DNA of 64,000 bases from Cyanidioschyzon merolae. Taxonomy: Eukaryota. The notes beneath the pieces were generated by a model. The model was not told where the DNA came from. It did not search any database and worked only from the letters and a program-made list of their open reading frames with translations. Shown here one piece after another: positions 1 through 60,200 of this stretch (position 1 is the first letter of the stretch; every line of letters begins with the position of its first letter). A program made the position numbers and the translations under genes. Location of the stretch: NCBI GenBank assembly GCA_000091205.1, contig AP006501.2. The stretch is one strand, 5' to 3'.

Positions 1-356
1 AGCAAAGCTGGTCTGTCTTCGTGCTGCGTGCGTACAGGCGCTACTCGTGCACCATTGCGGATGCTCACGACAGGTTCCGCAAGCGATGGATCGTACCAAA
101 TGACCAGTACGTCAGAGGGAAAGTGCAGTTGGCGGAACATGGAGAAGGAGACACGACCGTTCCTTTTCCGATCGTTGATATATCAAAAGCAGAATCGAGG
201 ATCCCTGGTCTGTGTAAACGCTCTGTCAAGCAAAAGAAAAATGACGTCGCTGCTGCACCATCCGTGTCGCGCGCACACGCAGATACATGCCTGCGACGCG
301 CGTTTTCGCAGCACTGGTGGTACCGTTTTTGCCTCTTGCAAGACGTCACGCTGGGT

Positions 357-7211: not shown

Positions 7212-8784
7212 CGTGTCTCTAATCGATGAGCAGCGGTGATCGCAGTCTCGTATGTAGTCAGCGCAGTGGATTCTGGAACAACTGTTCGAGGACGCGCTTT
7301 TGTTTCGATTGCTTTTCTCGCAGGTGTTCAACCAAGCAATTGTGTACTTTAGGTTCGGGGGAAAGTCGCGAAACGTTTTGAGCTTTTTATGGCTTGCTTG
7401 CGCAAACCGCCGTCATTCTTAACTGAAGGCAACGCAATCCGATAAAGTGCATGAATCAGCTGTCTCGTAGTGCCTGTTCCTAGAACTGCGCTCCAAAACG
7501 AGAACGTACCAGACGCCACCTACAAGCCTTGCTCGTTTTCAATCCGTTCCACTCCACAGTTCCGTTCAGAAAAAGCAGAGAAAAAACCACACGATATGAA
7601 GATTCTGTACCGTCGATACCGACGGTAATGAAGAGGCACGGGTGGACGACGCAAAAGCACGTTGCTCCGTGAGACCGTCGTACGTTGAACGAGACGCGCA
7701 CACTCTCATACGCACACCCGCGATCGATTACATCATGAAAAGCGAGCGGTTACTACGGGACGGACGAGTGCTCGTCGCTCTCAATGAGACTTCATTCAGA
7801 GAAGCGTGCAGACCTGGACACGGGCGCCCTAACAGGGATCATCGATGTTCGCACACCAGGAACACGCGAGTATTCCGAAAGGATCAGCAGTAGCAGCAGC
7901 ATGGAAATCGTGTGGTCGCCTACTTTTCGCCAAACGGGCGGGATTGCCCAACAGCTCATTCGCGGTCGAGGCAGTCCCCAGGATGCAGAGCTGAAGTGGA
8001 TGCCCTGCACGCTTGCTCCGGGGTGCGCCTTAGCGACCATGCGGCACATGCGGACGATCTTGGGGCAGGGGCACAGCGAACCGCGCTGGGGCCGCCAACG
8101 GTTTCGGTTGTATAGGCCGAACTGGCGTGCAATCGCCTACGTGGTCAGTCAGTTGGACAAAGCATCGACAGACGTGTCGCATCGTTTGGTGGAGGACGAA
8201 GGCGCTCGACGTATTGCTGCGCGCAAAGCACGTACCCGTGTTCGTTGCGCGAGAGCGCACACCGAGTGCAGGAATCGATGCGGTACGTGCTCCCGTTGAT
8301 GAGTTCAAAACGACGTATACGCATCACAAGAATGTGTGCACGCTGAAACGGGTAGAGAAGATGAATGTGAAACGGAACCTGATGCACGACGTGGTGTGCG
8401 GGAAGCGGAGCATCGTCAGGTAGCGACGAGGGTGCAGGTGAGCGGCTGGCAACGGCGTGATTCCCCGAGCAGCCACGCGTGCAAGCACATTCTGCGCGGA
8501 GACTTGGGCGTCTCAACGAGCACCCGGAAACGTCTCGTGCTTCCGGAGCGTCCATCGGTTTTGCATGAAGCGAGCGCTCGAGGTAGTAATCGGTTCGACC
8601 TTCGCGGCGCCATGGTACTGGAACGCAGAAGGCTTGCGATGAAAAGAATCAGTGGCGGCGAGAGAGGGCTCTGGATTCCCGACTGGAGCTATGCACTGGT
8701 ACGATATGGATCAGCAATCGAGTGAGACTCGTGTACTCTCATATATGCGCTGTGATTTGGATTCCCTGGCAGTTGGAGAAAGAT
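7212..8784 (+). mobile_element. Copy A of a repeated non-autonomous element (Fanzor-tail family); internal-deletion derivative
   Basis: The ~1.5-kb core (7264-8784) is ~98% identical to 39461-41010 and, inverted, to 56635-58190. The left-end motif 'gagcgtgtctctaa' (~7212) matches the left ends of copies B and C. About 580 bp of the Fanzor-derived segment present in B and C is missing here. Confidence 0.7.
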
Positions 8785-9333
8785 CGTGCTGATCCATACT
8801 TCAGAGTTCATAAGTCTGCTGAATCGCATCGCTCAGCTTCGAGCAAATCCTCCTCGATTCGGAGTCCTTTCGGCTGGCGCAGCGTCGCAACTGCACGAAA
8901 CCTCTTCGGCCATCTGTCGTGTTGCGTTGCGCTGCGAGCGCTTCAACGGACGTGGACGAACGAACTCTAGGCCTACAGGTATACGCACCCTATAAGATAG
9001 AATAGGCGAGCACACTGCTAGTCTCTGAGAAAACGCTGCGGGCGTCAGGTTCTCAAAAACTTTTGCCAGGCGCGCAGTCTGTTTTTGCGCGATTTGCTAG
9101 AGGCAACCCACTTGGCGTTGGTATCTGCTACGTTCGACCTTAAACAGTTGGCGCGACAGCTCTCGAACAAGCACTGCAACGCGGAGGCCCTTCACCGAGC
9201 CAAGGTGCTTCCGAACCTGCTGGAGGCGCCAGGAACGGACTGGCGCTCACTGCAGCACTAGGGCGATAGGGAACGTAGCGCGCCTGGCCAAAAGCCCAAA
9301 CGACGGAGACGTTTTAGATCATTTCCAGAGTCT

Positions 9334-11177: not shown

Positions 11178-11195
11178 CACCACTACCACCACCAC

Positions 11196-11234
<39 letters not shown>

Positions 11235-17499: not shown

Positions 17500-17950
17500 A
17501 AGTATGTTCAACTAAAGCAATAAAAATTCAAGTGGGGGTTATGGGCATGGTAGTTAGGGGTTTCGGAGAGCTCTCCATGCCACGTCCGATGAAAACAAAT
17601 CAAAAAAATTTTCTTCTTGCTGATCATCGGGCGAACGAAAGCAAGTGATGAAGAAGCAGAAGACGAGGAGATATGGGCGAGAAAAGGAGTTTGCCCGACG
17701 AGACAATGCCGAGGTTGTATTGATACAGAGGGCGTGAGTAAGAGGAATGCTTGCATTGTTGACTTCCGCCAGCGGCAATGTACGCGAGGAGCTTATGAAA
17801 CGAGAGTTCAATGCTGGTATCAGTATAAGATGAATTGTGTTGCTGGAGACGGAACCCGAGGCGCTGACGCGAGCCGCCTTTGTAAGGTAACCTCTCAGCG
17901 TCGAAGTGTGCCTGGATAAACTGTAGCGGATACCAGGCAGTCGGTCAAAA
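17500..17950 (+). pseudogene. Degenerate Fanzor (TnpB-like) 3'-terminal fragment
   Basis: Across frames it reads 'FARRDNAEVV...LLALLTSASGNVREELMKREFNAGISIRRIVLL...FVRQPLSVEV'. This is homologous to the RuvC-III / C-terminal region of the other copies ('EFVNRDVNAAI...VRQPLRLEVY'). The upstream ~120 bp aligns at nucleotide level with 38960-39080. Confidence 0.6.
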
Positions 17951-18696
17951 AAGGCTGGGAGGCGTCGAAAAGTGGGTGAATAGATATACCCCCATGGTCG
18001 TGACACATTGTTCGTTGTGCTCACCACGTATGTAGATGCTGGTGCGAGCACCGTATGCTATGGCAACAGGGTAATGCTTTCCTATGAGAACGGGCCCTGG
18101 GTCCTTTGGCTCCGATGCCGTCTCGTGCATGCCCGTATGCATCGCATCACGCTCGGCAGCGTGATCGACGAGCCCGTTTGGAGCATGTCACACGTGTGTC
18201 TCGGTGCGGTATAATTTCGGAACTCTCGAATCACCGGTAGAGTCTTTATTGTACTAGAGCTCGCTTTAGCGGCACGACAGACTCGAATGCGTGACGCGTT
18301 GGCGGCCGTCAGAGCGCCACTAAGGGCTGTGGTGGCTCGGCTATCTTGCCCCGGCACATGGACATATTATTCCGTTTCCCCATCATAATCACCAGAGCCG
18401 CATGTTCCATGTCCATCCATACTGCCTGCTCAGATTGCTGCTCAACCGACTACGCTTGTATGGCATACGCATTAGGCCATCGAAGCCAATAGGCGCTTGA
18501 GACTAGAACGCAACAGCTGCAGCCATGCATAGTTGCCTCCTCGTGCGGCTGGCGCCCGCTAATGTTTGCGTTTGCGCAGTCTCATACAAGCGCGGCCTTC
18601 GTCACGTCAACAAAATGAGTCTTATTCGGCACCAGGTGGCGTAGTCGAGCGGTCTCCATCTGAGCATGCGATCGCCACGCACACCTGCAACGACCG

Positions 18697-18912
18697 CCGC
18701 TGTATCGATGGCGAGCTTAGTTTTCCTGGTTCAATGCATCCATCCGACACCATCTAAAACAACCAGCACCGCTGTATCGATAGCGAGCTTAGTTTTCCTG
18801 GCTCAATGCATCTATCCTACACCATCTAAAGCGATCAACACCGCTGGATCGATGGCGACTTTGGATTTCCTGGCTCAATGCATCTATCCGACACCATATA
18901 TGGCGAGCAACG
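18697..18912. repeat. Minisatellite, 3 tandem copies of a ~72-bp unit
   Basis: 'caccgc(cg)ctgtatcgatggcgagcttagttttcctggytcaatgcatcyatccgacaccatctaaa...' appears three times in tandem. Confidence 0.85.
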
Positions 18913-23325: not shown

Positions 23326-24912
23326 CTACACGGCCTGCTCGTTTATCTCACCAAGATGATCGATGCAACTGATTCGCAGCGTCGACGTTGGTTTCTGGAT
23401 GCGGCAACGTCGGCGTATGTCGTCCAGAGCGATCTGAAAATATTCCACCGGACGAGCGGAATCTAGAAACTCATCGTGATCGGCTACATCTCCGTCAACA
23501 TAGTACCCGATATGACCAATGCCATTTGGTGCAAATATGTGCACGAATCCATTGGCGTCTAGTGTTATGCGCGGTGAACGGCCCACTGCATGTAGTGGAT
23601 GACTCGGGCGTTCACTGGCGGAGGCGCCGTTAGTAACAGGTAGCATACGAGTGACCGAAGCGTGTGGTGCATTCGCAACCTGATAAGGAACACGCGCATC
23701 ATGCTCTAGTCGCTCGGGTGATGGTAGTGGTGATGCGGCTGGTTGCGCAGTGAACGAGGCCCAGTCCGGCTCTATCTGCTCTACAACAGCAAGTGCACCA
23801 ACAAAGTGCCGATGGAAATGCAAGCGGCAAGCAGCACTCCTATCCCAGTGCGGTTCGTGTGCCTCCCGCTCTGGATCTGGGTCTTGCACCGTGAAAAGAC
23901 GGTAGAAATAGTCAAAGCCGCGGGCCATGATACCACCACCGCGGCACGGATGCGGAAGCGACAGACAGTGACCCAGTTCATGCAGCATCGCGCCAATTGT
24001 TGTGGAGGCCAAGGCCCAGCGTTCACCGCGACCGGCGCTATCATCGAAGAAGTTAATTGAGTCTACGCGTCTCCGATCACTAAAGCGCTTTGGCACTTCT
24101 GAGAGCGTCTGTGGCCATGCGTACATACCACTGGAGCCAAAGAGCGCTAACGTGCCTCCACCAAGTGCTGTGTGTCCATACACACGGCCTGTGCTCGCAT
24201 CTTTTGACGTGAAAGACATGACAGCCACGTCGATACACTGCTGGCGGTTAGATATGTTCGAGAGCTCCTCAGCAATCATACCCCAGAGCGCGTCACCCGA
24301 AAGTGCATGCAGCTCGGCTCGTGTCCGCGACAGACGCCTTACATGAACAGGTACATCATAGGCGCAGTGAATCTCTTCGATATTCCCTGGCAACGGAGTC
24401 GCACACGCAGCGCTCATACGTTCAATGCAAAAGCTCAAATGACCGAGGCCTTGCTCATGAAGCAACTCTGCGGCAGCTGTTTGCATGAGTCGTAACGCTA
24501 ACGCGAAACGGCGCACGGCGCTCGCAAGCATACAGTCTTCGTCGGGCGGAGCTTGGAAACGCACCTCCACGGCGTCTCGCGGCACGACGTAGACTGCTCG
24601 GACTACATAGTCCCAGGGGACGTCCAGATAGTGAACGCGAAACTGCAGTTTCGCTGGCCCGCTCAGCGGACCCGCAGCGACAAGGTTTACCCCTGGTTGC
24701 AGCCAGACTAACGCTCGAAACCTACCATCGCAGTTGCGCACAGGCCAAGGCGTTCGTTGCTGTTCAGCAACCAAACTACCTGGTTGAGCATTTGCCAAGT
24801 AAACGACGACGCACGTGAGGTGCTCATTGAGCGGCACCTGACCGCATATCAGAAGCAACGGAAACGTTACAGCTTCGTCTGGTCGGAGGTTCTCAACCCG
24901 CCATCGCACCAT
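23326..24912 (-). CDS. Putative zinc metalloprotease (metzincin-like HExxHxxxxxH motif)
   Basis: 528-aa ORF with an ATG at 24912. 'AMLHELGHCLSLPHP' has the metzincin spacing HExxH-5-H, with Ser in place of the Gly. I cannot assign a closer family. Confidence 0.45.
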   Translation of the reverse strand: MVRWRVENLRPDEAVTFPLLLICGQVPLNEHLTCVVVYLANAQPGSLVAEQQRTPWPVRNCDGRFRALVWLQPGVNLVAAGPLSGPAKLQFRVHYLDVPWDYVVRAVYVVPRDAVEVRFQAPPDEDCMLASAVRRFALALRLMQTAAAELLHEQGLGHLSFCIERMSAACATPLPGNIEEIHCAYDVPVHVRRLSRTRAELHALSGDALWGMIAEELSNISNRQQCIDVAVMSFTSKDASTGRVYGHTALGGGTLALFGSSGMYAWPQTLSEVPKRFSDRRRVDSINFFDDSAGRGERWALASTTIGAMLHELGHCLSLPHPCRGGGIMARGFDYFYRLFTVQDPDPEREAHEPHWDRSAACRLHFHRHFVGALAVVEQIEPDWASFTAQPAASPLPSPERLEHDARVPYQVANAPHASVTRMLPVTNGASASERPSHPLHAVGRSPRITLDANGFVHIFAPNGIGHIGYYVDGDVADHDEFLDSARPVEYFQIALDDIRRRCRIQKPTSTLRISCIDHLGEINEQAV

Positions 24913-24971
24913 TCACGCCGTTCGAAAGTCGAACGACGCGAACGGTGTACAGTAGTGGCGGCAACCGCGCC

Positions 24972-27377
24972 CTAGACGAAACGTATACAACTGACGTTCA
25001 GACGCCTTCCAGCCTTTTTGGACCGGCCACCCACTACTGCTTCCAACTTTTTCGCATATAGTTCGACTTTGAGGGGTTGCCTAACAACATTCTCTCGTGT
25101 CAACTCCGGAGGTCTCTTCTCCAGCACCGCGCATTTCCTTAGATTGATGGCGGCATTAAAATCTCGATTCACGAATTCCATCCGTTTCTTGCCATCACTG
25201 GCTGTATTCACTAATGCGAGTAATCCTCGCACTTTTGCCCTCCTTTCCATTTGCTCCCCCGTCAGCGGCCCATACTTTTTTATATCCTCAGGGCACCTCT
25301 GGCACTTTTCCATCTCGACCCTCTGAAGTGTACACCCCAGTTCAGGGTGTATATAGGACGTCCGGAACTCATCTATAGGTATCGTAACGAAACGCCGTGC
25401 ACACTCCTTGTATATTCTTGTCGTTGGAGCAGGCGTAGTTCCTTTTTGGGTCTTCCAACACCCTGCCCCATACGCTACGAAGAGCCTCTGACCTTCATCC
25501 TCCTTCAAGGCGCTCAACTGATTGGAAAAAATTCGCGAACGCCCGCTGCCTCCCACCGTATACATTCATACGCACTCGAATCCACCGAGGCTTGGTATAC
25601 TCCTCCCACAGCGCATCCCAATGAGCAACACGAACTTCCATCAATTTCAGAAAAGCCTGAAAGTCCGCATTCCGGCTCGTCACCTCACTCATAGCTTCCA
25701 GGCGATCCTTCATTCCTTCGTTCCATGTCTCAATTTTCTTCCTTGCATTCATTATACCGGATTCCCGATAATATCTTGCTCTCGAGAACCCCAAAGTTCG
25801 CATGTCTTTCTGACGTAAGCTACCGTCAATGACATCTTCCGCACGCTTGGGTGCTGCGATGGTAATGATATTCGTATTCCCAGGGTCCGCGCCAACGACA
25901 AAGTCGTTATCCTCTACCTGCTGCGTCGCTGGATCCTCCTTCTCCTTTTCTCCATGCTTCGTCACGGGCTCAGCCGAAGGCAGGACTGGACGATCTGTCT
26001 TGAACCGCCCATAGTGTACACACATGGCTACTCTATCGGATTCCATCATCCTCTTGAATACCTTTTGTTTACTCATTTTGAGACGTTTGAAATCTAAGAT
26101 ATCCTTCCAGTACGTCTCCCGGTTTTCGCCGGTGAAGTCCTCCCTGCTAGCATCAAACTCGGGATTGATATCCCTCATGATGCCGTTATGGACGCCGAAG
26201 TCGATACTCACAAAATGTGACTTGATGTTGCACAACGGAACGCCGTTGAAGCGCTTTCCCGTTAGGAAAGCCTTCCGTCTCTCCCACTCTTCATTTTTTT
26301 CCCCACTCAGCTTCATCTCTGCCTTGCGTTCGAGCTCTCGGTCCAGAAACACAAAATAGCGCAGGATGAGGCCATGATATCTTTCCTTACCGTTTTTCAA
26401 CTCTGATATCTTTTCTGCTAGATTCGCCAGCCCCAAGTCTGCGCGGCGCTCTTGAATAGCCGCACGGATTACAGAAGCTTCATTCGTGCTCTCGTTTGAC
26501 GCCTTCTTGTCGACGAATTCGATCTCATCTTCACGCTTGCGATCTTTCGTGATGCCGTCGATAATCGCCCATTTTCCATTGCGAGACAGACCCGGGTAGA
26601 GTGCAGCCACGCGCGTATCATGAAACGTTCGAGGTTCATGTTCAAATGGTTCTTCAGATTCGTGAGGTACTTCATAGCCCCATAGTCGTAAATATCCCGG
26701 TCACCCTTGTATCGAGTACCCTCGAAGCAGAATTTCGCGAAGTTTTCGTGGAGGACGTGCACCCGCTCATTTTCCCTCCATGTTTCCTCTGTACCAAGCA
26801 TCAGCTGACGAACAAAGGTCTTATCGAAAAACTCGTCCGGAATCTCGACCATTTCCACGTGCGTCACGTCGCGATACATCTCCCTCACCAAATGCATCAG
26901 TCCTGATGACGCCTTGACAATACTCTTGGAGTACGAATCGACACGGTTCCTAATGGCCTCTCGCAACTTTTGTTTGTGAGGATCCTTGTTATGTTTAAGA
27001 AGACAGGTTTTCACCACCATCTCGTCGTACTGTCTTCTTTCTCGCAGCCTTGGACGTGCGGCCTCCTGCCTTTGCTTCTTCTGCCCTTCCTGTTCTTCTT
27101 CGCCCCGCCATGTTTTTCGTGTTTCTCCACCAACCGGCGACACAGGGCCCCAGGATCCTCCGCTTCCACTTCCATAACTTTCCATTTTTAATTTTTTATA
27201 ACGCTCTCTGAACGCTTCTGCTCCAAACAGCGAAAAATCACTTGAATACACTTGCTTGAGTGTTGAAACACAATTGAACTGAATAATATACGTTGCTACG
27301 ACTTTAATGAAAATAAAATTTGCCGGGTAGAACAACACGCTACAGATTAGGATTCCATTCCTCTTCAACGGCGACAT
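24972..27377 (-). CDS. Fanzor-like (eukaryotic TnpB/OMEGA family) RNA-guided nuclease gene, near-intact. It is split over three overlapping ORF segments (26469..27377, 25495..26610, 24972..25565)
   Basis: The N-terminal segment has a K/R/E-rich NLS-like region. The middle segment carries RuvC-I ('[17 protein letters not shown]'). The third segment carries RuvC-II ('[16 protein letters not shown]'), a zinc finger ('[14 protein letters not shown]') and RuvC-III ('[15 protein letters not shown]'). The order RuvC-I, RuvC-II, ZnF, RuvC-III and the 'RDxNAAxN' motif are characteristic of TnpB/Fanzor. The frame changes between segments are consistent with either tiny introns or inactivating frameshifts. 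Confidence 0.8.
25518..25563 (-). other. Candidate 46-nt GT-AG intron joining Fanzor ORF segments 2 and 3
   Basis: On the minus strand the sequence 'gtatacggtgggaggcagcgggcgttcgcgaattttttccaatcag' begins with GT and ends with AG. Removing it joins '...RVRMN' in frame to '[19 protein letters not shown]...'. A length of 46 is not a multiple of 3, which explains the frame switch. Confidence 0.35.
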
Positions 27378-28010: not shown

Positions 28011-28335
28011 CCGAAAGCAAATATCCATCCCGCAATCTGGGATCCATGGTCAATATAAACGTCTTGTCATCGAAATATGCCTCCCGACTGGGGGACGCGT
28101 CAGCGTCGCAGCGCATCGCTGCTGGCGACCCGACGGCTGGACACGTTTCCTCTGCGTATCTGTGCCGCACGGCGCTGCAGTGCCTGGAGACTCCAAGAAG
28201 TGGGGTGTGCGTTTTGTTTGACGGATCGGTAGTGGTTGGGTGTGCTACAGTTCCACGAAGCAAACCGTTCTGCTTAGTTGTGTTCTCTCTAGAGTTCTTT
28301 CCGCGGAGGCCTGAGACTTAGCGAATTTATTTGTT

Positions 28336-34737: not shown

Positions 34738-34860
34738 GCCGAACACCTCAAGCTGACGCCCTCAGTGATATGGCAAAGCCGTTCTGTGTCTGTCCTGCGA
34801 TCGCACCGGCGCTTTAGGAGCCATCGCTGACGCTCAAGGCGGGCTCGGCGCACGAAAGAA
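34738..34860 (+). repeat. ~200-bp interspersed repeat, copy 2 (partial), abutting the outer end of IR arm 2
   Basis: 'gacgccctcagtgatatggcaaagccgttctgtgtctgtcctgcgatcgcaccggcgct...' aligns with 27820-27930. Confidence 0.6.
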
Positions 34861-38826: not shown

Positions 38827-41010
38827 GAGCGTCTCTAACATAGTCTGCTACCTCTATTATGTTCCACCGCAGGTGCGAGTCCTTTACGGCCTCTTCGCGG
38901 TTTACCGCAGATTCATTCGAAGCGCGTTCATCTTGAAGAAATACAGTATTCAAGGGGAAGGTATGCACGTAAAAGCCGAGGATCCTGGAGGACCGTCATC
39001 CCTGGCTGCCCGAAGAAAACGCAAAAAATCCTCTCATCGCCGATCATCGAGCGAAGACAAGCAAGTTACGAGGAAAAAAACAGAATAGGGGACACAGACG
39101 ATAAAAGGTGTTTGCTAGACGTGACAATGACGAGACTGTTGTGGCGCAGGGGGCGCGAGTACTTGGAATTCTTGCAATGTTGAGCTCCACCAGCGTCAAT
39201 GCACGCAAGGAGTTCGTGAATCGAGACGTGAACGCCGCCATCTATACCAAACGATGTGCGGTGCTGAAGAGGATACCCGAGGCGCTGGCGCGAGCCCGTC
39301 TTGTGAGGCAGCCTCTCAGGCTCGAGGTATACATGCAGAATCTGGAACTGATAGCAGGCGGCCGGTCAGACGAGAGAGTGAGGCGTCTGCGAGTGGGTGT
39401 CTATGTACCTATCATGGTCGTGAACCGCTGCTCGTTGTACCGACTATAAACTTAGAGCAGTGGATTCTGGAACAACTTTTCGAGGGCGCGCTTTTGTTTC
39501 GATTGCTTTTCTCGCAGGTGTTCAACCAAGCAATTGTGTACTTTAGGTTCGGGGGAAAGTCGCGAAACGTTTTGAGCTTTTTATGGCTTGCGTGCGCAAA
39601 CCGCCGTCATTCTGAACTGAAGGCAACGCAATCCGATAAAGTGCATGAATCAGCTGTCTCGTAGTGCCTGTTCCTAGAACTGCGCTCCAAAACGAGAACG
39701 TACCAGACGCCACCTACAAGCCTTGCTCGTTTTCAATCCGTTCCACTCCACAGTTCCGTTCAGAAAAAGCAGAGAAAAAACCACACGATATGAAGATTCT
39801 GTACCGTCGATACCGACGGTAATGAAGAGGCACGGGTGGACGACGCAAAAGCACGTTGCTCCGTGAGACCGTCGTACGTTGAACGAGACGCGCACACTCT
39901 CATACGCACACCCGCGATCGATTACATCATGAAAAGCGAGCGGTTACTACGGGACGGACGAGTGCTCGTCGCTCTCAATGAGACTTCATTCAGAGAAGCG
40001 TGCAGACCTGGACACGGGCGCCCTAACAGGGATCATCGATGTTCGCACACCAGGAACACGCGAGTATTCCGAAAAGATCAGCAGTAGCAGCAGCATGGAA
40101 ATCGTGTGGTCGCCTACTTTTCGCCAAACGGGCGGGATTGCCCAACAGCTCATTCGCGGTCGAGGCAGTCCCCAGGATGCAGAGCTGAAGTGGATGCCCT
40201 GCACGCTTGCTCCGGGGTGCGCCTTAGCGACCATGCGGCACATGCGGACGATATTGGGGCAGGGGCACAGCGAACCGCGCTGGGGCCGCCAACGGTTTCG
40301 GTTGTATAGGCCGAACTGGCGTGCAATCGCCTACGTGGTCAGTCAGTTGGACAAAGCATCGACAGACGTGTCGCATCGTTTGGTGGAGGACGAAGGCGCT
40401 CGACGTATTGCTGCGCGCAAAGCACGTACCCGTGTTCGTTGCGCGAGAGCGCACACCGAGTGCAGGAATCGATGCGGTACGTGCTCCCGTTGATGAGTTC
40501 AAAACGACGTATACGCATCACAAGCATGTGTGCACGCCGAAACGGGTAGAGAAGACGAATGTGAAACGGAACCTGATGCACGACGTGGTGTGCGGGAAGC
40601 GGGGCATCGTCAGGTAGCGACGAGGGTGCAGGTGAGCGGCTGGCAACGGCGTGATTCCCCGAGCAGCCACGCGTGCAAGCACATTCTGCGCGGAGACTTG
40701 GGCGTCTCAACGAGCACCCGGAAGCGTCTCGTGCTTCCGGAGCGTCCATCGGTTTTGCATGAAGCGAGCGCTCGAGGTAGTAATCGGTTCGACCTTCGCG
40801 GCGCCATGGTACTGGAACGCAGAAGGCTTGCGATGAAAAGAATCAGTGGCGGCGAGAGAGGGCTCTGGATTCCCGACTGGAGCTATGCACTGGTACGATA
40901 TGGATCAGCAATCGAGTGAGACTCGTGTACTCTCATATATACGCTGTGATTTGGATTCCCTGGCAGTTGGAGAAAGATCGTGCTGATATACTATCCGATT
41001 TTACTGCGGA
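38827..41010 (+). mobile_element. Copy B of the ~2.2-kb repeated non-autonomous element: a Fanzor 3' fragment (38835-39460) plus the 1.5-kb core (39461-41010)
   Basis: Near-identical to 56635-58824 inverted; the core is identical to 7264-8784. The ends were read from where the three copies diverge: left 'ccgagcgtctctaaca', right '...gatcgtgctgatatactatccgattttactgcggatat'. No target-site duplication is seen. Confidence 0.8.
39108..39449 (+). pseudogene. Fanzor/TnpB C-terminal fragment (RuvC-III) inside copy B
   Basis: 'ARVLGILAMLSSTSVNARKEFVNRDVNAAIYTKRCAVLKR...VRQPLRLEVYMQNLELIAGGRS' aligns with the intact copy's '[41 protein letters not shown]...[22 protein letters not shown]'. Confidence 0.75.
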
Positions 41011-41354
41011 TATGAAGCGAGATGCAACACAGTGTTTTGATATAAATCCGCGCATTCAAACCTATAGACTTTCAGATGAACTTTGACACTCGCAACACAA
41101 ATCTCGCTCGTTGGAGCTGCTCGACTCGCGGCGTCTAGCCTTCTCGAAACTGGAATGCGACTGCCGGACAGTCACAGTTGCAAAACGTTCGCTGCGAAAT
41201 CGGTCATTGGGACAGTATTTCCAACCATCCACGGCTATTTCATGTGCAAAAGCTCTCCAAGCCGTAGAATTTGCAGTGTTTTCTTTTTTATAGGCATGCA
41301 CATGAGCTTTCTTATTTTGACGCTCCAAAGAACTAGTGTCTGATTCGGCGATCG

Positions 41355-44399: not shown

Positions 44400-45908
44400 A
44401 ATTATCGCTCTTTACAGATTCCTTGGTTGAAGCAACCAGTCAATAAATAAAAATATATCGTCATTGGAACAAAAAATGTTTGTCGAACAGTGAGAGTAAA
44501 CATATAAACTCAAGCGCAGACGACTTCCAGCCATTTTTGACCGGGCACCTGCTATCGGTTTCAGCTTCTCCTTATACACTTCAAGCCTGAAAGGCAGCTT
44601 CACGAAGTTCTCTGGCGTCAGCTATGCGATTCTCGTCTTCAGCACCGCACATCGTCTGATGTTGATATCGGTTTCGAAGTCTCGGCTCACGATCTCCTTG
44701 CATACATTGCTGCTAGTTAACGTTATTTATGCAAGGGTTCCTTGAACTCGTGCCCTTTGTGCCCCTACAGTCTCGTCATCCTACTGTCGGGCAGACACCT
44801 TGCATCGCACATCTCTCATCGTCATCTTTTCCGTGGTCACTTGCTCCTCATCGCTCGATGGTCGCCAAGGAGAGAATTTTTCGCTTGTTCGTCGAACCCG
44901 CAGGCAAGGGGCCTCCAGGACCCTCCACTTCCATGTCCATAAGTTTCCTTTATACAGTATGGTCTTGAAAATGAATGCACCTCTTTATGAACTCAGGTGA
45001 GAAAATTCCTCAAGCGTGAAGCTCTTGCGTAGGAGAGACGAAATGTGCCCCAGTGTGTCGTCGTGTGCTGAAAGCTTCAGCGATTCGGCCAGCGGAGGGA
45101 TCATTACGTTTCACGATCCAAAACGGTCATTCGAAGACGTTGAATCACGGCAATTACGGAGGGATGAAAAGCTACTGTACCCAGGCAGGATCCGCAAATG
45201 CTCGAAACCAAGTCGAATTGTTAAATACCATGTTGATCAATGGAAGGACGTCGCCAGACGTCAGGAGTAAAGTCTTTAATGATTCCACAAACTTGGTGGC
45301 GCTGTTGTATGAGCCTTCTTCACTTGCGAAACTGAGGCCATCAAATGAATCCATTCCAGCTTGAACTGATGAAGATATCATCGTTCTCTTCGAGTACCTT
45401 CATGCATGCATCGGGCCCCCAGTCAGCGAATACCCATCCATGCCCCGATCGTTTTTCCGAAGAAGGTTTCATCGATTTGAAAAACATACCAATGTCTCTG
45501 TGCTTCATATCGATCGCAGCGTTCCGAGAATTCTGTCGTTGCGATTTCGGTGGAAGCTGACGTTCATTGAACTTTGACTTTCTTGTAAGCGTATCCTAGT
45601 GTTTTCAAGACTACACGAACAAACTGCTGAGTAACCGAGACGCCCGTGGAGACTTTCATCGTCCTTTTTGCTTTCCGTAAGGCGATTAACGGGACGTTTT
45701 CTACCACCGACAGCAGGCAATCTCCGAGAATATTGGTTTTTTGCCTGTAGTGTACATGCTTCTCTCCTTCCAGTGTTCCTGAACCATCTGAAACTGTGGT
45801 ATGACTGACCTGCAGAAGGAATGCAGTATTCCGTGTATTGCTCAGTAAAGAACATATACTGGGCATTTCGTCTACATTCTGTGGGGTATCTTGCCGGGCC
45901 ACTTCGAT
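44400..45908 (-). pseudogene. Degenerate Fanzor-like pseudogene (X1), interrupted at its 5' side by a retrotransposon insertion. Inverted paralogue at 58830-60200
   Basis: The 3' end translates (with frameshifts) to '...RLEVYKEKLKPIAGARSK'. Its nucleotide sequence aligns with 38960-39440 and with 59830-60200. The body, 44990-45910, matches 58900-59820 inverted. The section reading '...VTQQFVRVVLKTLG' recalls '...[10 protein letters not shown]' of the intact copy. Confidence 0.55.
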
Positions 45909-48900
45909 TTTTCTTTAATCACTGACGAAATGTTTACCTAAGCCAGCGTTCTCCGATTATGCGCATTTTTCGTTTCTTAATTTTTTTGTGTTTTTTGTCA
46001 GTGTGAGGTGGGATATCCATCAACCCCCTACCTCCATGTTACATTACCTATACTTCGTCTCGGATATTCTGGTCGTTTCATGCGTCCTATCGGGTGCCGA
46101 GCCTGCCGAAAGCGACAGCAATAGCGCCTATAGCGCCGGTGCAGTCGCTGCACGGAGACAGAACGGCGTTGCCGTACCACAAAGAGCGTCTGCTCGAGGT
46201 GTGCTTCACCCGACGTAGAATCGGGTCTCGTCGTCAGTTTGTGCTCGGATAGTCTGCAAATGCAGGCTTGCCTTCGCTGCAATACACGCTGTAGAAACTT
46301 GGCTGTTAGGATATATCCTGAGAGCCGCCTCTCTCCTTCGTGATCATGCATGGAATGCGTTGTTGTCGGTTGGCAATGCGGGTTTGTGCTTGACACCCAT
46401 CACAGTGGGTAGGCACAAAGAGCACTAAACCCGTGTGCTCATCCGATTCGTTGGACCTGCTGCCTAGAAGGTAGAGTTTGAGTTTATTGGCCACTCATGA
46501 GCGCTGAGGCTCCGTTAGCGCACCATCAGTTGCCAGTGCTACACTCAGAGTGAGTGTCCGGCCTTCGACAATCACGGTGATGTCCAGCTGCTGCTGTCCT
46601 CCAAGGAACTCGCTGCGCTCCTGCTTCGAGCGCGGGCACTGTAAGCTTAAATATGTCAGCGTCTCGGGGATTTCGTCTCGATAGCAGGTACAGTGTGACT
46701 CCCAGTGCGGTTCCAGTGTTCCCGTACGGAGTAGAGCCGGTGCTGGTAGCCAGAAGCCACCAACGCGGATTTTGGCGAGCCACTGGGTACCGCGAGCAAG
46801 TCCCGGGAATTCCAGCGCCTCCCACCAGTACTTGCTTGTGTATGCTAGGTTGTAGTTCCGGTATAGAGTCAAGCCGGCGTTACTGGCGCGACTGGTACCG
46901 TGTCTACCTTCCCATATTGGCGTTCGGACCGTTCGCTAGAGGCGGCGGGAGCCTTGTACATTTCTGGGGAACGATTGGAGCGCATTTTCGCGTAAGAGGC
47001 GCTTTAGCCAAATCTGCGCTGATTTCATCCAAGTTTTCTTGCGGTGCGTTGGGGTCTGCATGAAAATCCGACTCAAAGGGGTGCGCATAGTGGGCCCTTT
47101 GGCCCGTATACATGCCCAGCAGCCTGCTGCTATCGCTTCTATCGAGGCTATTTGGAGTTCAAGTCCGAGTGCCAGCGGGTTGGTTGCTCTGCGCTGCATT
47201 GAGCATCCAACAACAACAACGAGTCGCATTGCCCTGTTGGCAGCTGTCTGCAGACGCGAGGCATTTGTGTGCTTCATGCCGCACCATTCAGCACCCCAGG
47301 TCGAAGGCTGGATGATACACATCCTTAGTGCCCTCGTACGGATTGCTAAGGGGATAGAGGGGTCGGATGGGAATGGGCGTGCGATCGCTGTACGTCTATG
47401 CATCTTGGCGATCATCTCGTCGACGTGAGCCTTTTCGTCGAGCGTCGGCGTGAGACAGACCCCCAGGTAGCGATATTTTTCCACGATCGGAATTTCCTGA
47501 TTCTGCAACCGCCATGAGCGATTGCGAATGCTCTGTGAGTCTCCATGGATGACCATGGCGCCGCACTTCAATGCTCCTATGTTCATAACCCAGCGATCGG
47601 CCCAGGCGCTGACTTGTTGCATGCTAGCCGCAAGCGTTTCCGGGGCGGGTGCCAACAGCACGACGTCGTCGGCAAGTAGAAGGCCTGCGAGGCGGTTTCT
47701 ATGTGAGGGCTCCTCATCGGGCATCTCCACAGTCTATCCACGGCACCTCAAGTCCGTATTGTCTGCGGTTGTTCAGCAGATCGTTGATGAAGATGTTGAA
47801 AAGGCGCGGGGATGCGCGGTCGCCCTGTCGCAGTCCACGGCGGATTCTTATCGAAGGGGTTCTTGAGCAGTCGCCCAGTCGGGTGCACATCCACGAGTCT
47901 GCATAGAGCGCACGGAAGAACGCTAAGCACTTTCCGGAGACTCCGGCACGTTCCATCTTCAGAAATGGAGCCTCGTGCGGGACCGTTTCAAAGGCCTTTT
48001 GAAAGTCGATGAAGCATACGTAAGTTGGTTGTTGGCAGCTAATGGAGCGACGTTGCACCACTTCAATGAAGGTCAGGTCATGGCTCATGTACTCCTCGCG
48101 GCTCCGGAATCCAGCCTGTTCTGGGGCGAGGAATTTGCGTTCCTCGAGGCCCCTCTGAGTCCGGTTCGTGAGGTTGGCGCAAAGTAGCTTCATGATTTAC
48201 GGGATGAGGCGCATAGTCCGGTAGATATTCATGTCTGTGGGGTTCGGAGTCCTTTTTGAGGATCGGTACGACCTCGGCAGTCCTCCATACATCTGGGATG
48301 TACGCTTCTTCGAACATGCGTTGGATGAGCTCCAGAAGGCGCTTGCCTAAGATTGTGTCAGGTTCATCTGGTATCGATAGTGTCCCTGTTGTCTCGTCTT
48401 TTGGGGTCGCCAGTTTCATCCACTCCGTAGGGATACCGTCAAAGCCAGGTGTTTTGCGGTTGCATGACCTTAAGAGGGTCCGGACAGATTCAGGCCAGAA
48501 GATTGGGTCGTTCCATACCGGTACCGGGTCGAGGCGCGGTAGTTCTGCAGCATATTGGTGCCAATAGATTGGGTCTTGGCAGTGCCCAGTTGCGTCTTCA
48601 TGCAGCTCTGTCCCGTGGTCTATCCAGGCCTCATTCACTGAGGCACTCTCCGTCCTCAGCGCTTCCTTATAAACAATTGGTGTGAGCCCCAGGCACTTTC
48701 TTGGTGGGTCCAGTCTCGATCGAATGGAGCGCCATGTCTCATCTTCGTTGGTGCTCTCCAGCATAGATTTCGCCAGGGAGGCGATTCTGCGATTTCGATC
48801 CTCCTGTTTGTCTTCTCTGGAAAGTTTCTTCTTTCTTTTGATAGCTTCCTCATGTTGTGCCTGTAGCGCCGTTAGGACTGCCTTCGCTTCCTTGTCTCCG

Positions 48901-56634: not shown

Positions 56635-58824
56635 CTCGTATATCCGCAGCAAAATCGGATAGTATATCAGCACGATCTTTCTCCAACTGCCAGGGAATCC
56701 AAATCACAGCGTATATATGAGGGTGCAAAAGTCTCACTCGATTGCTGATCCATATCGTACCAGTGCATAGCTCCAGTCGGGAATCCAGAGCCCTCTCTCG
56801 CCGCCACTGATTCTTTTCATCGCAAGCCTTCTGCGTTCCAGTACCATGGCGCCGCGAAGGTCGAACCGATTACTACCTCGAGCGCTCGCTTCATGCAAAA
56901 CCGATGGACGCTCCGGAAGCACGAGACGTTTCCGGGTGCTCGTTGAGACGCCCAAGTCTCCGCGCAGAATGTGCTTGCACGCGTGGCTGCTCGGGGAATC
57001 ACGCCGTTGCCAGCCGCTCACCTGCACCCTCGTCGCTACCTGACGATGCCCCGCTTCCCGCACACCACGTCGTGCATCAGGTTCCGTTTCACATTCATCT
57101 TCTCTACCCGTTTCAGCGTGCACACATTCTTGTGATGCGTATACGTCGTTTTGAACTCATCAACGGGAGCACGTACTGCATCGATTCCTGCACTCGGTGT
57201 GCGCTCTCGCGCAACGAACACGGGTACGTGCTTTGCGCGCAGCAATACGTCGAGCGCCTTCGTCCTCCACCAAACGATGCGACACGTCTGTCGATGCTTT
57301 GTCCAACTGACTGACCACGTAGGCGATTGCACGCCAGTTCGACCTATACAACCGAAACCGTTGGCGGCCCCAGCGCGGTTCGCTGTGCCCCTGCCCCAAG
57401 ATCGTCCGCATGTGCCGCATGGTCGCTAAGGCGCACCCCGGAGCAAGCGTGCAGGGCATCCACTTCAGCTCTGCATCCTGGGGACTGCCTCGACCGCGAA
57501 TGAGCTGTTGGGCAATCCCGCCCGTTTGGCGAAAAGTAGGCGACCACACGATTTCCATGCTGCTGCTACTGCTGATCCTTTCGGAATACTCGCGTGTTCC
57601 TGGTGTGCGAACATCGATGATCCCTGTTAGGGCGCCCGTGTCCAGGTCTGCACGCTTCTCTGAATGAAGTCTCATTGAGAGCGACGAGCACTCGTCCGTC
57701 CCGTAGTAACCGCTCGCTTTTCATGATGTAATCGATCGCGGGTGTGCGTATGAGAGTGTGCGCGTCTCGTTCAACGTACGACGGTCTCACGGAGCAACGT
57801 GCTTTTGCGTCGTCCACCCGTGCCTCTTCATTACCGTCGGTATCGACGGTACAGAATCTTCATATCGTGTGGTTTTTTCTCTGCTTTTTCTGAACGGAAC
57901 TGTGGAGTGGAACGGATTGAAAACGAGCAAGGCTTGTAGGTGGCGTCTGGTACGTTCTCGTTTTGGAGCGCAGTTCTAGGAACAGGCACTACGAGACAGC
58001 TGATTCATGCACTTTATCGGATTGCGTTGCCTTCAGTTAAGAATGACGGCGGTTTGCGCAAGCAAGCCATAAAAAGCTCAAAACGTTTCGCGACTTTCCC
58101 CCGAATCTATAGTACACAATTGCTTGGTTGAACACCTGCGAGAAAAGCAATCGAAACAAAAGCGCGCCCTCGAACAGTTGTTCCAGAATCCACTGCTCTA
58201 AGTTTATAGTCGGTACAACGAGCAGCGGTTCACGACCATGATAGGTACATAGACACCCACTCGCAGACGCCTCACTCTCTCGTCTGACCGGCCGCCTGCT
58301 ATCAGTTCCAGATTCTGCATGTATACCTCGAGCCTGAGAGGCTGCCTCACAAGACGGGCTCGCGCCAGCGCCTCGGGTATCCTCTTCAGCACCGCACATC
58401 GTTTGGTATAGATGGCGGCGTTCACGTCTCGATTCACGAACTCCTTGCGTGCATTGACGCTGGTGGAGCTCAACATTGCAAGAATTCCAAGTACTCGCGC
58501 CCCCTGCGCCACAACAGTCTCGTCATTGTCACGTCTAGCAAACACCTTTTATCGTCTGTGTCCCCTATTCTTCTTTTTTTCCTCGTAACTTGCTTGTCTT
58601 CGCTCGATGATCGGCGATGAGAGGATTTTTTGCGTTTTCTTCGGGCAGCCAGGGATGACGGTCCTCCAGGATCCTCGGCTTTTACGTGCATACCTTCCCC
58701 TTGAATACTGTATTTCTTCAAGATGAACGCGCTTCGAATGAATCTGCGGTAAACCGCGAAGAGGCCGTAAAGGACTCGCACCTGCGGTGGAACATAATAG
58801 AGGTAGCAGACTGTTAGAGACACT
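56635..58824 (-). mobile_element. Copy C (inverted) of the ~2.2-kb repeated non-autonomous Fanzor-tail element
   Basis: Reverse complement of 38827-41010 at ~98% identity. The same set of ORF translations appears on opposite strands. Confidence 0.8.
58204..58545 (-). pseudogene. Fanzor/TnpB C-terminal fragment (RuvC-III) inside copy C
   Basis: The translation is identical to 39108..39449. Confidence 0.75.
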
Positions 58825-58829
58825 CGGGA

Positions 58830-60200
58830 CTGTGCCAGATCATATGCTTTCAATCCAATTTCGTTTCAGCCTCTGCTGCAGCGTATAGCAAGATATCGAA
58901 ATCACTATTGAATGAGCCCTGTAGATCGTAGTCGAATTGCCTGTAGGATATATTCTTTACTGAGCAATACACGGAATACTGCATTCCTTCTGCAGGTCAG
59001 TCATACCACAGTTTCAGATGGTTCAGGAACACTGGAAGGAGAGAAGCATGTACACTACAGGCAAAAACCAATATTCTCGGAGATTGCCTGCTGTCGGTGG
59101 TAGAAAACGTCCCGTTAATCGCCTTACGGAAAGCAAAAAGGACGATGAAAGTCTCCACGGGCGTCTCGGTTACTCAGCAGTTTGTTCGTGTAGTCTTGAA
59201 AACACTGGGATACGCTTACAAGAAAGTCAAAGTTCAATGAACGTCAGCTTCCACCGAAATCGCAACGACAGAATTCTCGGAACGCTGCGATCGATATGAA
59301 GCACAGAGACATTGGTATGTTTTTCAAATCGATGAAACCTTCTTCGGAAAAACGATCGGGGCATGGATGGGTATTCGCTGACTGGGGGCCCGATGCATGC
59401 ATGAAGGTACTCGAAGAGAACGATGATATCTTCATCAGTTCAAGCTGGAATGGATTCATTTGATGGCCTCAGTTTCGCAAGTGAAGAAGGCTCATACAAC
59501 AGCGCCACCAAGTTTGTGGAATCATTAAAGACTTTACTCCTGACGTCTGGCGACGTCCTTCCATTGATCAACATGGTATTTAACAATTCGACTTGGTTTC
59601 GAGCATTTGCGGATCCTGCCTGGGTACAGTAGCTTTTCATCCCTCCGTAATTGCCGTGATTCAACGTCTTCGAATGACCGTTTTGGATCGTGAAACGTAA
59701 TGATCCCTCCGCTGGCCGAATCGCTGAAGCTTTCAGCACACGACGACACACTGGGGCACATTTCGTCTCTCCTACGCAAGAGCTTCACGCTTGAGGAATT
59801 TTCTCACCTGAGTTCATAAAGAATTGTGCTCATTTGAAAATATGTAAAACCCAGGAGACGAGCTGGGGGTGTACAGTTTTGAGGTGGAAATGGAAAAAGA
59901 GCCAGCGGAGCGTTTTAGCGATAGCGAAGCATGGGGAGCTGACGGAGCACCGAATGTCACGTAGGGCACGAGTTCGAGGACTACTTTCTCTGGTGATTTC
60001 CTCCAGCGGCAATTTACGCACTGAGTTCGTGAGCCGAAACTTCAACGTCGCTATCAATATCAGGAGATATGCGGTGCTGAAGACGAGCCCCCAAGACCTG
60101 ACGAAATCTACCTTGGTATTGTAGCCTCTCAGGCTCGAAGTCTACATGGAAAAAGTGACACCATTATCAGGAAGCCGATCACGTTAAGGCGGAGAGGTGT
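58830..60200 (+). pseudogene. Degenerate Fanzor-like pseudogene (X2), uninterrupted paralogue of X1. It ends ~250 bp upstream of ORC1
   Basis: 'RGLLSLVISSSGNLRTEFVSRNFNVAINIRRYAVLKTSP', then after a frameshift 'PLRLEVYMEKV...'. The body 58900-59820 is the reverse complement of 44990-45910. It sits head-to-head with the Fanzor fragment of copy C. Confidence 0.55.

Follow-up and report, generated by a model that had tools for sequence, protein, structure and literature searches.

A strand-specific structured module at the right end of a Fanzor1 transposon in Cyanidioschyzon merolae: a candidate omegaRNA scaffold

The DNA considered here, referred to throughout as the window, is a stretch of 64,000 nucleotides (nt) from contig AP006501.2 of the Cyanidioschyzon merolae assembly GCA_000091205.1. 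Its minus strand carries a pseudogene for a Fanzor1-type nuclease (24972-27185), with RuvC motifs that include GADPG and DEFRTS, followed by an open reading frame (ORF) for a metalloprotease (23326-24912; PF12044, E = 5e-68). The nuclease gene lies within a Fanzor1 transposon of about 3.2 kb, which in this Cyanidiophyceae red alga occupies the minus strand from about 28079 to 24906. Guide RNAs of Fanzor and TnpB nucleases, termed omegaRNAs, are derived from the 3' end of the nuclease ORF together with the transposon right end (PMC10432273, PMC10530073), and the initial annotation of the window had accordingly predicted such an RNA on the minus strand between 24700 and 25060. That general frame was borne out, in that the right end holds a conserved, strand-specific structured module. 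The limits of the RNA, the state of the nuclease and the copies suitable for comparison had to be revised.

The nuclease gene, initially described as an intact Fanzor, is spread over three reading frames (ORFs 26469-27377, 25495-26610 and 24972-25565). Relative to 41 family copies it has two private indels that break the frame, a 1-nt deletion near 26611 (-1) and a 1-nt insertion near 25525 (+1), which make it a pseudogene; another base may be missing near 27150. Because the focal sequence recurs without indels in three metagenome assemblies (L004-L006), the frameshifts are not read errors. A protein search yielded 46 relatives, and a metagenome scan that used the last 216 residues as query gave at least 600 stretches, with at least 527 confirmed and 80 loci fetched. 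Conservation hardly differs between the first, second and third codon positions, indicating little purifying selection in the family, and most of its copies are decaying. In the ORF lists and in six-frame translation of the element, the nuclease is the sole long frame and no transposase gene is seen.

Single-sequence searches of Pfam and PDB with the focal protein found no match, so that a profile and structure prediction were needed to place it. The sole PDB hit of a 10-member profile was the Fanzor1 of Guillardia theta (GtFz1, 9cer), a weak match (E = 0.056) in which the RuvC-I D and RuvC-II E motifs are aligned with those of GtFz1, and Cas12f1-like_TNB was matched by three of the ten members (best E = 6.7e-5). 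An AlphaFold model of the family protein (pLDDT 67) matches SpuFz1, PpFz1 and GtFz1 with E values of 7e-14 to 6e-11 and template modelling (TM) scores of 0.45-0.65, the best match being to SpuFz1 (E = 7e-14, TM 0.52/0.63), as against E values of only about 0.1 for Fanzor2 or TnpB. On this predicted fold the family protein is classed as Fanzor1-type.

Comparison of copies places the right end of the element within narrow limits. Of 79 non-identical loci, 49 lose family DNA homology at 24905-24917 and 28 more lose it earlier, at 24918-24988; column conservation collapses after ...CGAACGGCG(UUGAUGGUG), and mean pairwise identity falls across the right end from 0.63 to 0.37. Among the related copies fetched, homology stops 0-1 nt past a terminal hairpin, and the hairpin therefore marks the transposon right end. 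The host gene bears on the same point. Orthologous metalloproteases, the closest named of which is from Cyanidiococcus yangmingshanensis (67% identity), start MFEQRGWRVENL and MIEHNGWRIENL, and the ORF in the window starts MVRWRVENL; its match to the conserved GWRVENL of the orthologues begins at the W codon (24903-24901). Since the orthologues share WRVENL, the sequence is that of the host from 24903-24901 at the latest, which puts the right end at 24906/24907. A right end about 14 nt beyond GGTG, suggested by similarity to one copy (L076), was rejected because the orthologues show WRVENL from 24903 to be host sequence. The overlap with the start of the neighbouring metalloprotease gene, which the initial annotation had pointed out, is real: the ORF runs from 24912 to 23326 (-), and its ATG (24912-24910), situated in the 3' arm of the hairpin, appears to be the present in-frame start (MVRW...), supplied by the transposon end.

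At the left end (28030-28080, minus strand), a T-rich tract is followed by ATG|ACAAGACGTTTATATTGACC, with the boundary at about 28079/28080 (+/- 1-2 nt); the arrangement of a T-rich tract and then ATG|ACAAAACGTTTACATTGACC is common to copies at different loci. Outside this end sits MRCDADASPSRE, the presumed original start of the metalloprotease (28080-28116, minus strand), an ATG and 12 codons displaced by the insertion. When 28116-28080 is joined to the sequence from 24905 onward, the in-frame product MRCDADASPSREGWRVENL is obtained and the G-W of the orthologues is restored; the element probably split the metalloprotease after about codon 12, +/- 1 nt. The reconstructed empty site requires no target-site duplication, and no terminal inverted repeat links 24906-24950 with 28030-28080. 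Left-end regions from 15 loci (about 10 distinct insertions) have no consistent stable or strand-biased fold. A left-end-like motif, in which a T-rich tract precedes ACAGAGCGTTTACACAGACC, is also found at about 207-226 (-) and may belong to another related element, cut off by the left edge of the window. Near the left end, the non-coding segment 27806-27987 is 73-81% similar to 46029-46210, which lies upstream of a Fanzor-like stretch (44508-44759), and to 34743-34811, a likeness that hints at 5' regulatory or end sequence conserved across families.

In light of these boundaries, the interval 24700-25060 originally proposed for the omegaRNA is too wide. Judged by the orthologues, 24700-24905 is metalloprotease coding sequence of the host and not scaffold; its first 15-20 nt past the right end could at most be capable of acting as a guide, and 24700-24885 is simply that gene. 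What stands of the interval is a candidate scaffold at about 24906-24999, possibly extending further upstream into the nuclease ORF. This module, 94 nt long as delimited by a covariance model (R1), is proposed as a minimal omegaRNA scaffold. Followed along the minus strand from 24999 to 24906, it begins 25 nt ahead of the TAG stop codon (24974-24972), which consequently lies within it, and consists in order of a stem-loop at the stop codon, a GC stem, a CCACUACUGUA linker, a hairpin of 19 base pairs (bp) and one further base. The fold energy of the module is -42.4 kcal/mol on the minus strand (z = -4.8) versus -32.0 kcal/mol on the plus strand (z = -2.2).

Helix 1 of R1 (24974-24986, minus strand) has the consensus AGACG-UUU-CGUCU, with one mismatch in the focal copy, and its final base is the first base of the stop codon; 80.6% of its cells are paired, and each of its five pairs shows a change on both sides somewhere (5/5). 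Helix 2 (24957-24971, minus strand) is a short GC stem-loop, GGCG...CGCC, which has 4 bp in the focal copy but as many as 6 elsewhere in the family; in copy L025 it reads GGCGCG/CGCGCC versus GGCGGG/CUCGCC in the majority. Between this stem and the terminal hairpin lies the non-coding linker CCACUACUGUA (24948-24958, minus strand), which is nearly invariant, column identity among 65 unique 3' ends being mostly 0.8-0.99 despite its position past the stop codon. In the minimum-energy fold the linker pairs with GCAGUAGUGG in the ORF (approximately 25040-25031), the intervening 90 nt being folded. Searches of Rfam at gathering thresholds found no match to the module; the only hit, a microRNA-like one to the hairpin at 18.5 bits against a threshold of 60, is a chance match.

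Attention had been drawn to this region by a perfect 7-bp stem with a 3-nt loop, CGTTCGAAAGTCGAACG. The hairpin is as described and occurs once in the window, at 24919-24935 (+) rather than at 24918-24934. Alone it does not stand above chance, because the window contains 11 perfect 7-bp hairpins with 3-nt loops versus 4.1 +/- 2.0 in first-order Markov (dinucleotide-frequency) resamples; with loops of 3-8 nt the numbers are 52 versus 24.7. It is, however, only the apex of the terminal hairpin (24907-24947), in which the minus-strand stem grows to 19 bp, including three G.U pairs, over the 41 nt from 24947 to 24907. This structure, CACCGUUCGCGUCGUUCGA-CUU-UCGAACGGCGUGAAUGGUG, with its 3-nt loop, is the candidate guide-adjacent stem-loop. 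As RNA it has an energy of -31.9 kcal/mol on the minus strand (z = -6.9) and of -20.8 kcal/mol on the plus strand, and with DNA parameters it is still stable (-18.2 kcal/mol). Stems of at least 15 bp are absent from 10 resamples, and the real window has only one other, in a GT-rich tract at 11178-11230, where the minus strand can fold back by G.U pairs only.

The hairpin was compared across the family by folding the 65 nt past the invariant CAC in each independent copy. In most subfamilies a long hairpin extends from CAC to GUG with both arms altered: its ends are CACCGC/GCGGUG in L056, CACGCC/GGUGUG in L035 and L051, and CGCCGC/GUGGCG in L021, where the closing pairs CAC/GUG became CGC/GCG. 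One hairpin class has the apex ACGUUUUUC-UUUY-GAAAGGCGU, and in L042 and L014 unrelated GC-rich palindromes, that of L042 measuring 15 bp, occupy the hairpin position. Among 46 independent insertions the sequence of the hairpin has been replaced, but the hairpin itself is retained. Mean fold energy of 50 nt in these insertions is -18.9 kcal/mol on the sense strand, compared with -13.3 kcal/mol on the antisense strand, -12.9 kcal/mol in shuffles and -9.9 kcal/mol in the next 50 nt of flank. The sense strand is the more stable in 41 of the 46 copies (Wilcoxon 9e-8), the sense hairpin differs from the flank in fold energy at p = 3e-8, and there are about 2.9 G.U pairs per hairpin. Selection acts on the structure of the terminal hairpin as it forms on the sense strand, where wobble pairs are numerous.

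A similar picture is obtained with R1, which was built from 10 copies and finds the module in all family loci and once in the window (cmsearch, 103 bits at 24906-24999). In the R1 alignment, which covers 61 distinct copies, the share of paired cells is 81.4% versus 75.8% in shuffled alignments, 25 of 30 pairs show changes on both sides, and the covariation score is 0.197 versus 0.126 shuffled and 0.04-0.07 in slid controls, each of these values being matched by none of 500 shuffles; the alignment was fitted to the structure, so that the counts are biased toward it. Matches to the module were also noted at L061:135-213 and L049:1-96, which have a common downstream flank. The L061 match has no Fanzor coding sequence upstream, and the upstream side of the L049 match is cut off by the start of the locus; these may be truncated or 'ghost' copies within another repeat.

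With a probability of roughly 60%, the module at 24906-24999 (-) is the Fanzor1 omegaRNA scaffold of this family, a reading favoured because place, strand, size and order of parts are right and because the hairpin is selected on the sense strand. An omegaRNA scaffold at a Fanzor right end is an expected feature and not a new kind of system. Sense-strand transcription would continue past the ORF end and cross the right end, and the 3' part of the transcript would form, in this order, a short stem-loop on each side of the stop codon, an unpaired CCACUACUGUA of conserved sequence and a long hairpin closed by CAC/GUG; the RNA would then be processed and bound by the nuclease, and the next 15-20 nt or so, contributed by the DNA flanking the insertion, would serve as guide. 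Known Fz1 omegaRNAs are 75-90 nt long and consist of stem-loops followed by the guide directly at the right end (PMC10432273, PMC11423790), the guide comprising 14-21 nt beyond that end (PMC10432273, PMC10530073, PMC11423790). By the Fanzor/TnpB rule (PMC10432273), the predicted guide here would extend from 24905 to about 24886 on the minus strand, GAUGGCGGGUUGAGAACCUC, about 20 nt that correspond to codons 3-9 of the present metalloprotease ORF. Right past the hairpin the sequence is unrelated among copies, as at any transposon end. Because the focal nuclease is frameshifted, the module at this locus is a relic, workable only if other copies provide the protein. The predicted guide opens with the 8 nt GATGGCGG (24898-24905, minus strand), which recur at 25146-25153 (+) inside the coding sequence of the RuvC-III motif (NAAIN) of the element, probably by coincidence.

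Among characterised systems, SpuFz1 of Spizellomyces punctatus (PDB 8GKH) is the best structural match of the family protein (E = 7e-14), with an identity of only about 14%. Its scaffold has about 75 nt of stem-loops followed by a flank-derived guide of 14-15 nt (PMC10432273, PMC11423790), and the present module, at about 94 nt, has its parts in the same order. In SpuFz1 a 30-nt terminal inverted repeat, common to the left end, falls within the scaffold, whereas here a 19-bp self-complementary hairpin is found and no inverted repeat; the conserved 7-bp SL1 is not recognised here, and the stop codon lies inside the module. GtFz1 is likewise from an alga, and its omegaRNA shares sequence with the final 17 codons of the ORF (PMC10432273). 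Among PDB sequences the family profile hits this protein alone (9cer, E = 0.056), across the RuvC-I motif, but the RNA of GtFz1, which has four stem-loops, is longer (PMC11423790) and permits no sequence or structural alignment with the present module. The likeness to the TnpB of ISDra2 and other IS200/IS605 elements is one of plan, the guide RNA being made from the nuclease 3' end and right end with the flank as guide (PMC10432273). The host here is a eukaryote, the fold is that of Fanzor1, and the match to TnpB (8h1j) reaches only an E of about 0.1; in the element, TnpA, a left-end hairpin and a target motif or target-adjacent motif (TAM) were not found. Fanzor1 also occurs in Tc1/mariner-type elements (Bao and Jurka 2013, PMC3627910), as with the distant relative P0041 (locus L085) beside a DDE_3 transposase, whereas the focal family has neither a second ORF nor inverted repeats.

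A number of observations weigh against assigning the module to an omegaRNA. The focal gene is a pseudogene, and an ORF of at least 650 amino acids is present in only about 4 of 82 loci. To the structural bias of the R1 counts must be added that 14 close 'canonical' copies, in an unfitted MAFFT alignment, have no covariation above shuffles, so that the signal comes from divergent subfamilies as the model aligns them. RNAalifold recovered only the 4-bp GGCG/CGCC stem from plain MAFFT alignments of 46 and 56 copies, the terminal hairpin being missed because its length-variable arms are misaligned. Structural support is thus that of the divergent subfamilies and of the alignment-free folding statistics. 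The long-range helix GCAGUAGUGG:CCACUACUGU and its domain (25040-24950) have 78.8% of cells paired versus 77.9% shuffled in an unfitted 46-copy alignment, with double changes no better than in slid controls, so that this helix is at best weakly supported. Synonymous sites are not conserved in excess towards the 3' end of the ORF; third positions score 0.68-0.82 throughout. The 7-bp SL1 of solved Fz1 omegaRNAs was not recognised, the upstream stems having only 5 bp and 4-6 bp, and no TAM-like motif is common to about nine independent left-end flanks, in which the boundary is uncertain by 1-2 nt. Finally, a transposition signal in single-stranded DNA could also take the form of a hairpin on the sense strand with G.T pairs.

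The last of these points can be taken further, to the view that the terminal hairpin is only a DNA-level signal of the transposon end, used by a trans-acting transposase on single-stranded DNA, and has no role in a guide RNA. Its models are the subterminal hairpins of IS200/IS605 elements and the 3' hairpin of Helitrons. IS200/IS605 elements lack terminal inverted repeats and target-site duplications and have strand-specific end hairpins. The focal element has no terminal inverted repeats, its reconstructed insertion shows no target-site duplication, no transposase gene of its own is seen in the ORF lists, and the hairpin, strand-specific and stable with DNA parameters, is at its very end. The IS200/IS605 pattern of same-strand subterminal hairpins at both ends is nevertheless found at the right end only, the left end having no comparable stable or strand-specific hairpin and no conserved target motif beside it, and neither the ORFs of the element nor its translation in six frames shows an HUH transposase. 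Of the 16 pairs in a hairpin, about 3 are of the G.U/G.T kind, and RNA tolerates these better. Moreover, the hairpin closes 0-1 nt from the boundary, whereas that of Helitrons lies about 10-12 nt before CTRR and IS608 has a linker and a cleavage site, and an invariant linker and two small stems are left unexplained by a DNA signal. An exclusive role in DNA is for these reasons judged unlikely. The two roles do not exclude each other, since IS200/IS605 right-end hairpins overlap TnpB omegaRNAs and both functions can therefore coexist. That the present hairpin is both the guide-adjacent stem of an omegaRNA and the mobilisation signal of a Fanzor1 element without inverted repeats or transposase is more doubtful still; if this were so, a eukaryotic Fanzor1 lineage would have kept or reinvented hairpin-end transposition of the IS200/IS605 kind, and this lineage would have multiplied to hundreds of copies within the otherwise streamlined genome of a thermoacidophilic red alga.

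The place of the module directly past the stop codon on the sense strand, and its being structured, would also fit an element in the 3' untranslated region (UTR) of the Fanzor mRNA, acting in stability, 3'-end formation or translation control, and the end of conservation with the end of the element would hold for the UTR of any mobile gene. This explanation is improbable: the hairpin is not followed by a U-tract, the structure and the transposon boundary fall exactly together, so that a poly(A) site would fall in variable flank, and characterised Fanzor1 loci use the region for omegaRNA (PMC10432273, PMC10530073). Least credible of all is a chance palindrome without function. The commonness of hairpins with 7-bp stems and 3-nt loops (11 in the window against about 4 expected) and the lack of covariation in close copies would allow it, but the actual stem is of 19 bp, it occurs with different sequences at the same position in 46 independent insertions, and it is asymmetric between the strands. 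For the family as a whole, a chance palindrome is refuted.

The module provides a compact candidate omegaRNA scaffold of about 94 nt, together with its natural variants, in a Fanzor1 family from a hot-spring alga of the Cyanidiophyceae. These algae live at 40-56 C and low pH, and an active member of the family could therefore be a heat-tolerant, eukaryotic RNA-guided nuclease. With its 527 or more confirmed stretches, the family is also very large for a small and supposedly repeat-poor algal genome, published surveys having recorded at most 122 Fanzor copies per genome (PMC10530073). The ends without inverted repeats bear on the mode by which Fanzor1 moves, and both the hairpin end and the distant relative beside a DDE_3 transposase are of interest. 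For annotation, the corrections are that the nuclease is a pseudogene, that the transposon boundary lies at 24906/24907 and that the present start codon of the metalloprotease comes from the transposon end.

Other Fanzor-like sequences in the window do not carry the module. The initial annotation had proposed comparison with the copies at 17950, 39449 and 58204, but these give no hit to the model even with filters off, and comparison with them is therefore uninformative. The other Fanzor-like pieces in the window have only about 80-110 C-terminal residues in common, and their 3' sequences are different. Distant relatives (L083-L085) were likewise rejected as carriers of the module, their 3' regions being different and not alignable. 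In L085, an ORF for a DDE_3 (Tc1/mariner-type) transposase (588-1466) lies directly upstream of the Fanzor gene P0041, the product of which is 33% identical to the focal protein. In L083, the locus of P0039, the motif GTGTTCCACA...AGTATAC is present both at the contig start and just past the Fanzor 3' region, which suggests tandem copies or a right-end/left-end junction.

The window also carries uninterrupted eukaryotic genes, among them ORFs for a pentatricopeptide repeat (PPR) protein, ATP sulfurylase, eIF3e, an ORC1-like protein and a mitochondrial carrier. Together with the 67% identity of the metalloprotease to that of Cyanidiococcus yangmingshanensis, they place the host among the Cyanidiophyceae, as an alga that JGI metagenomes have sampled. 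Near-identical repeats (97-99%) are also present: 39074-41013 is inverted relative to 56640-58579, a further copy at 7251-8793 is direct with the former and inverted relative to the latter, and 44969-45741 and 59063-59835 (likewise 97-99%) are inverted relative to each other. Fanzor-like C-terminal stretches are contained in 39074-41013 (39153-39395, plus strand) and 56640-58579 (58258-58500, minus strand), another (59867-60193, plus strand) adjoins the repeat 59063-59835, and two more are found at 17729-17974 (plus strand) and 44508-44759 (minus strand). A tandem repeat at 18688-18903 consists of three copies of a 72-nt unit with 78-89% identity.

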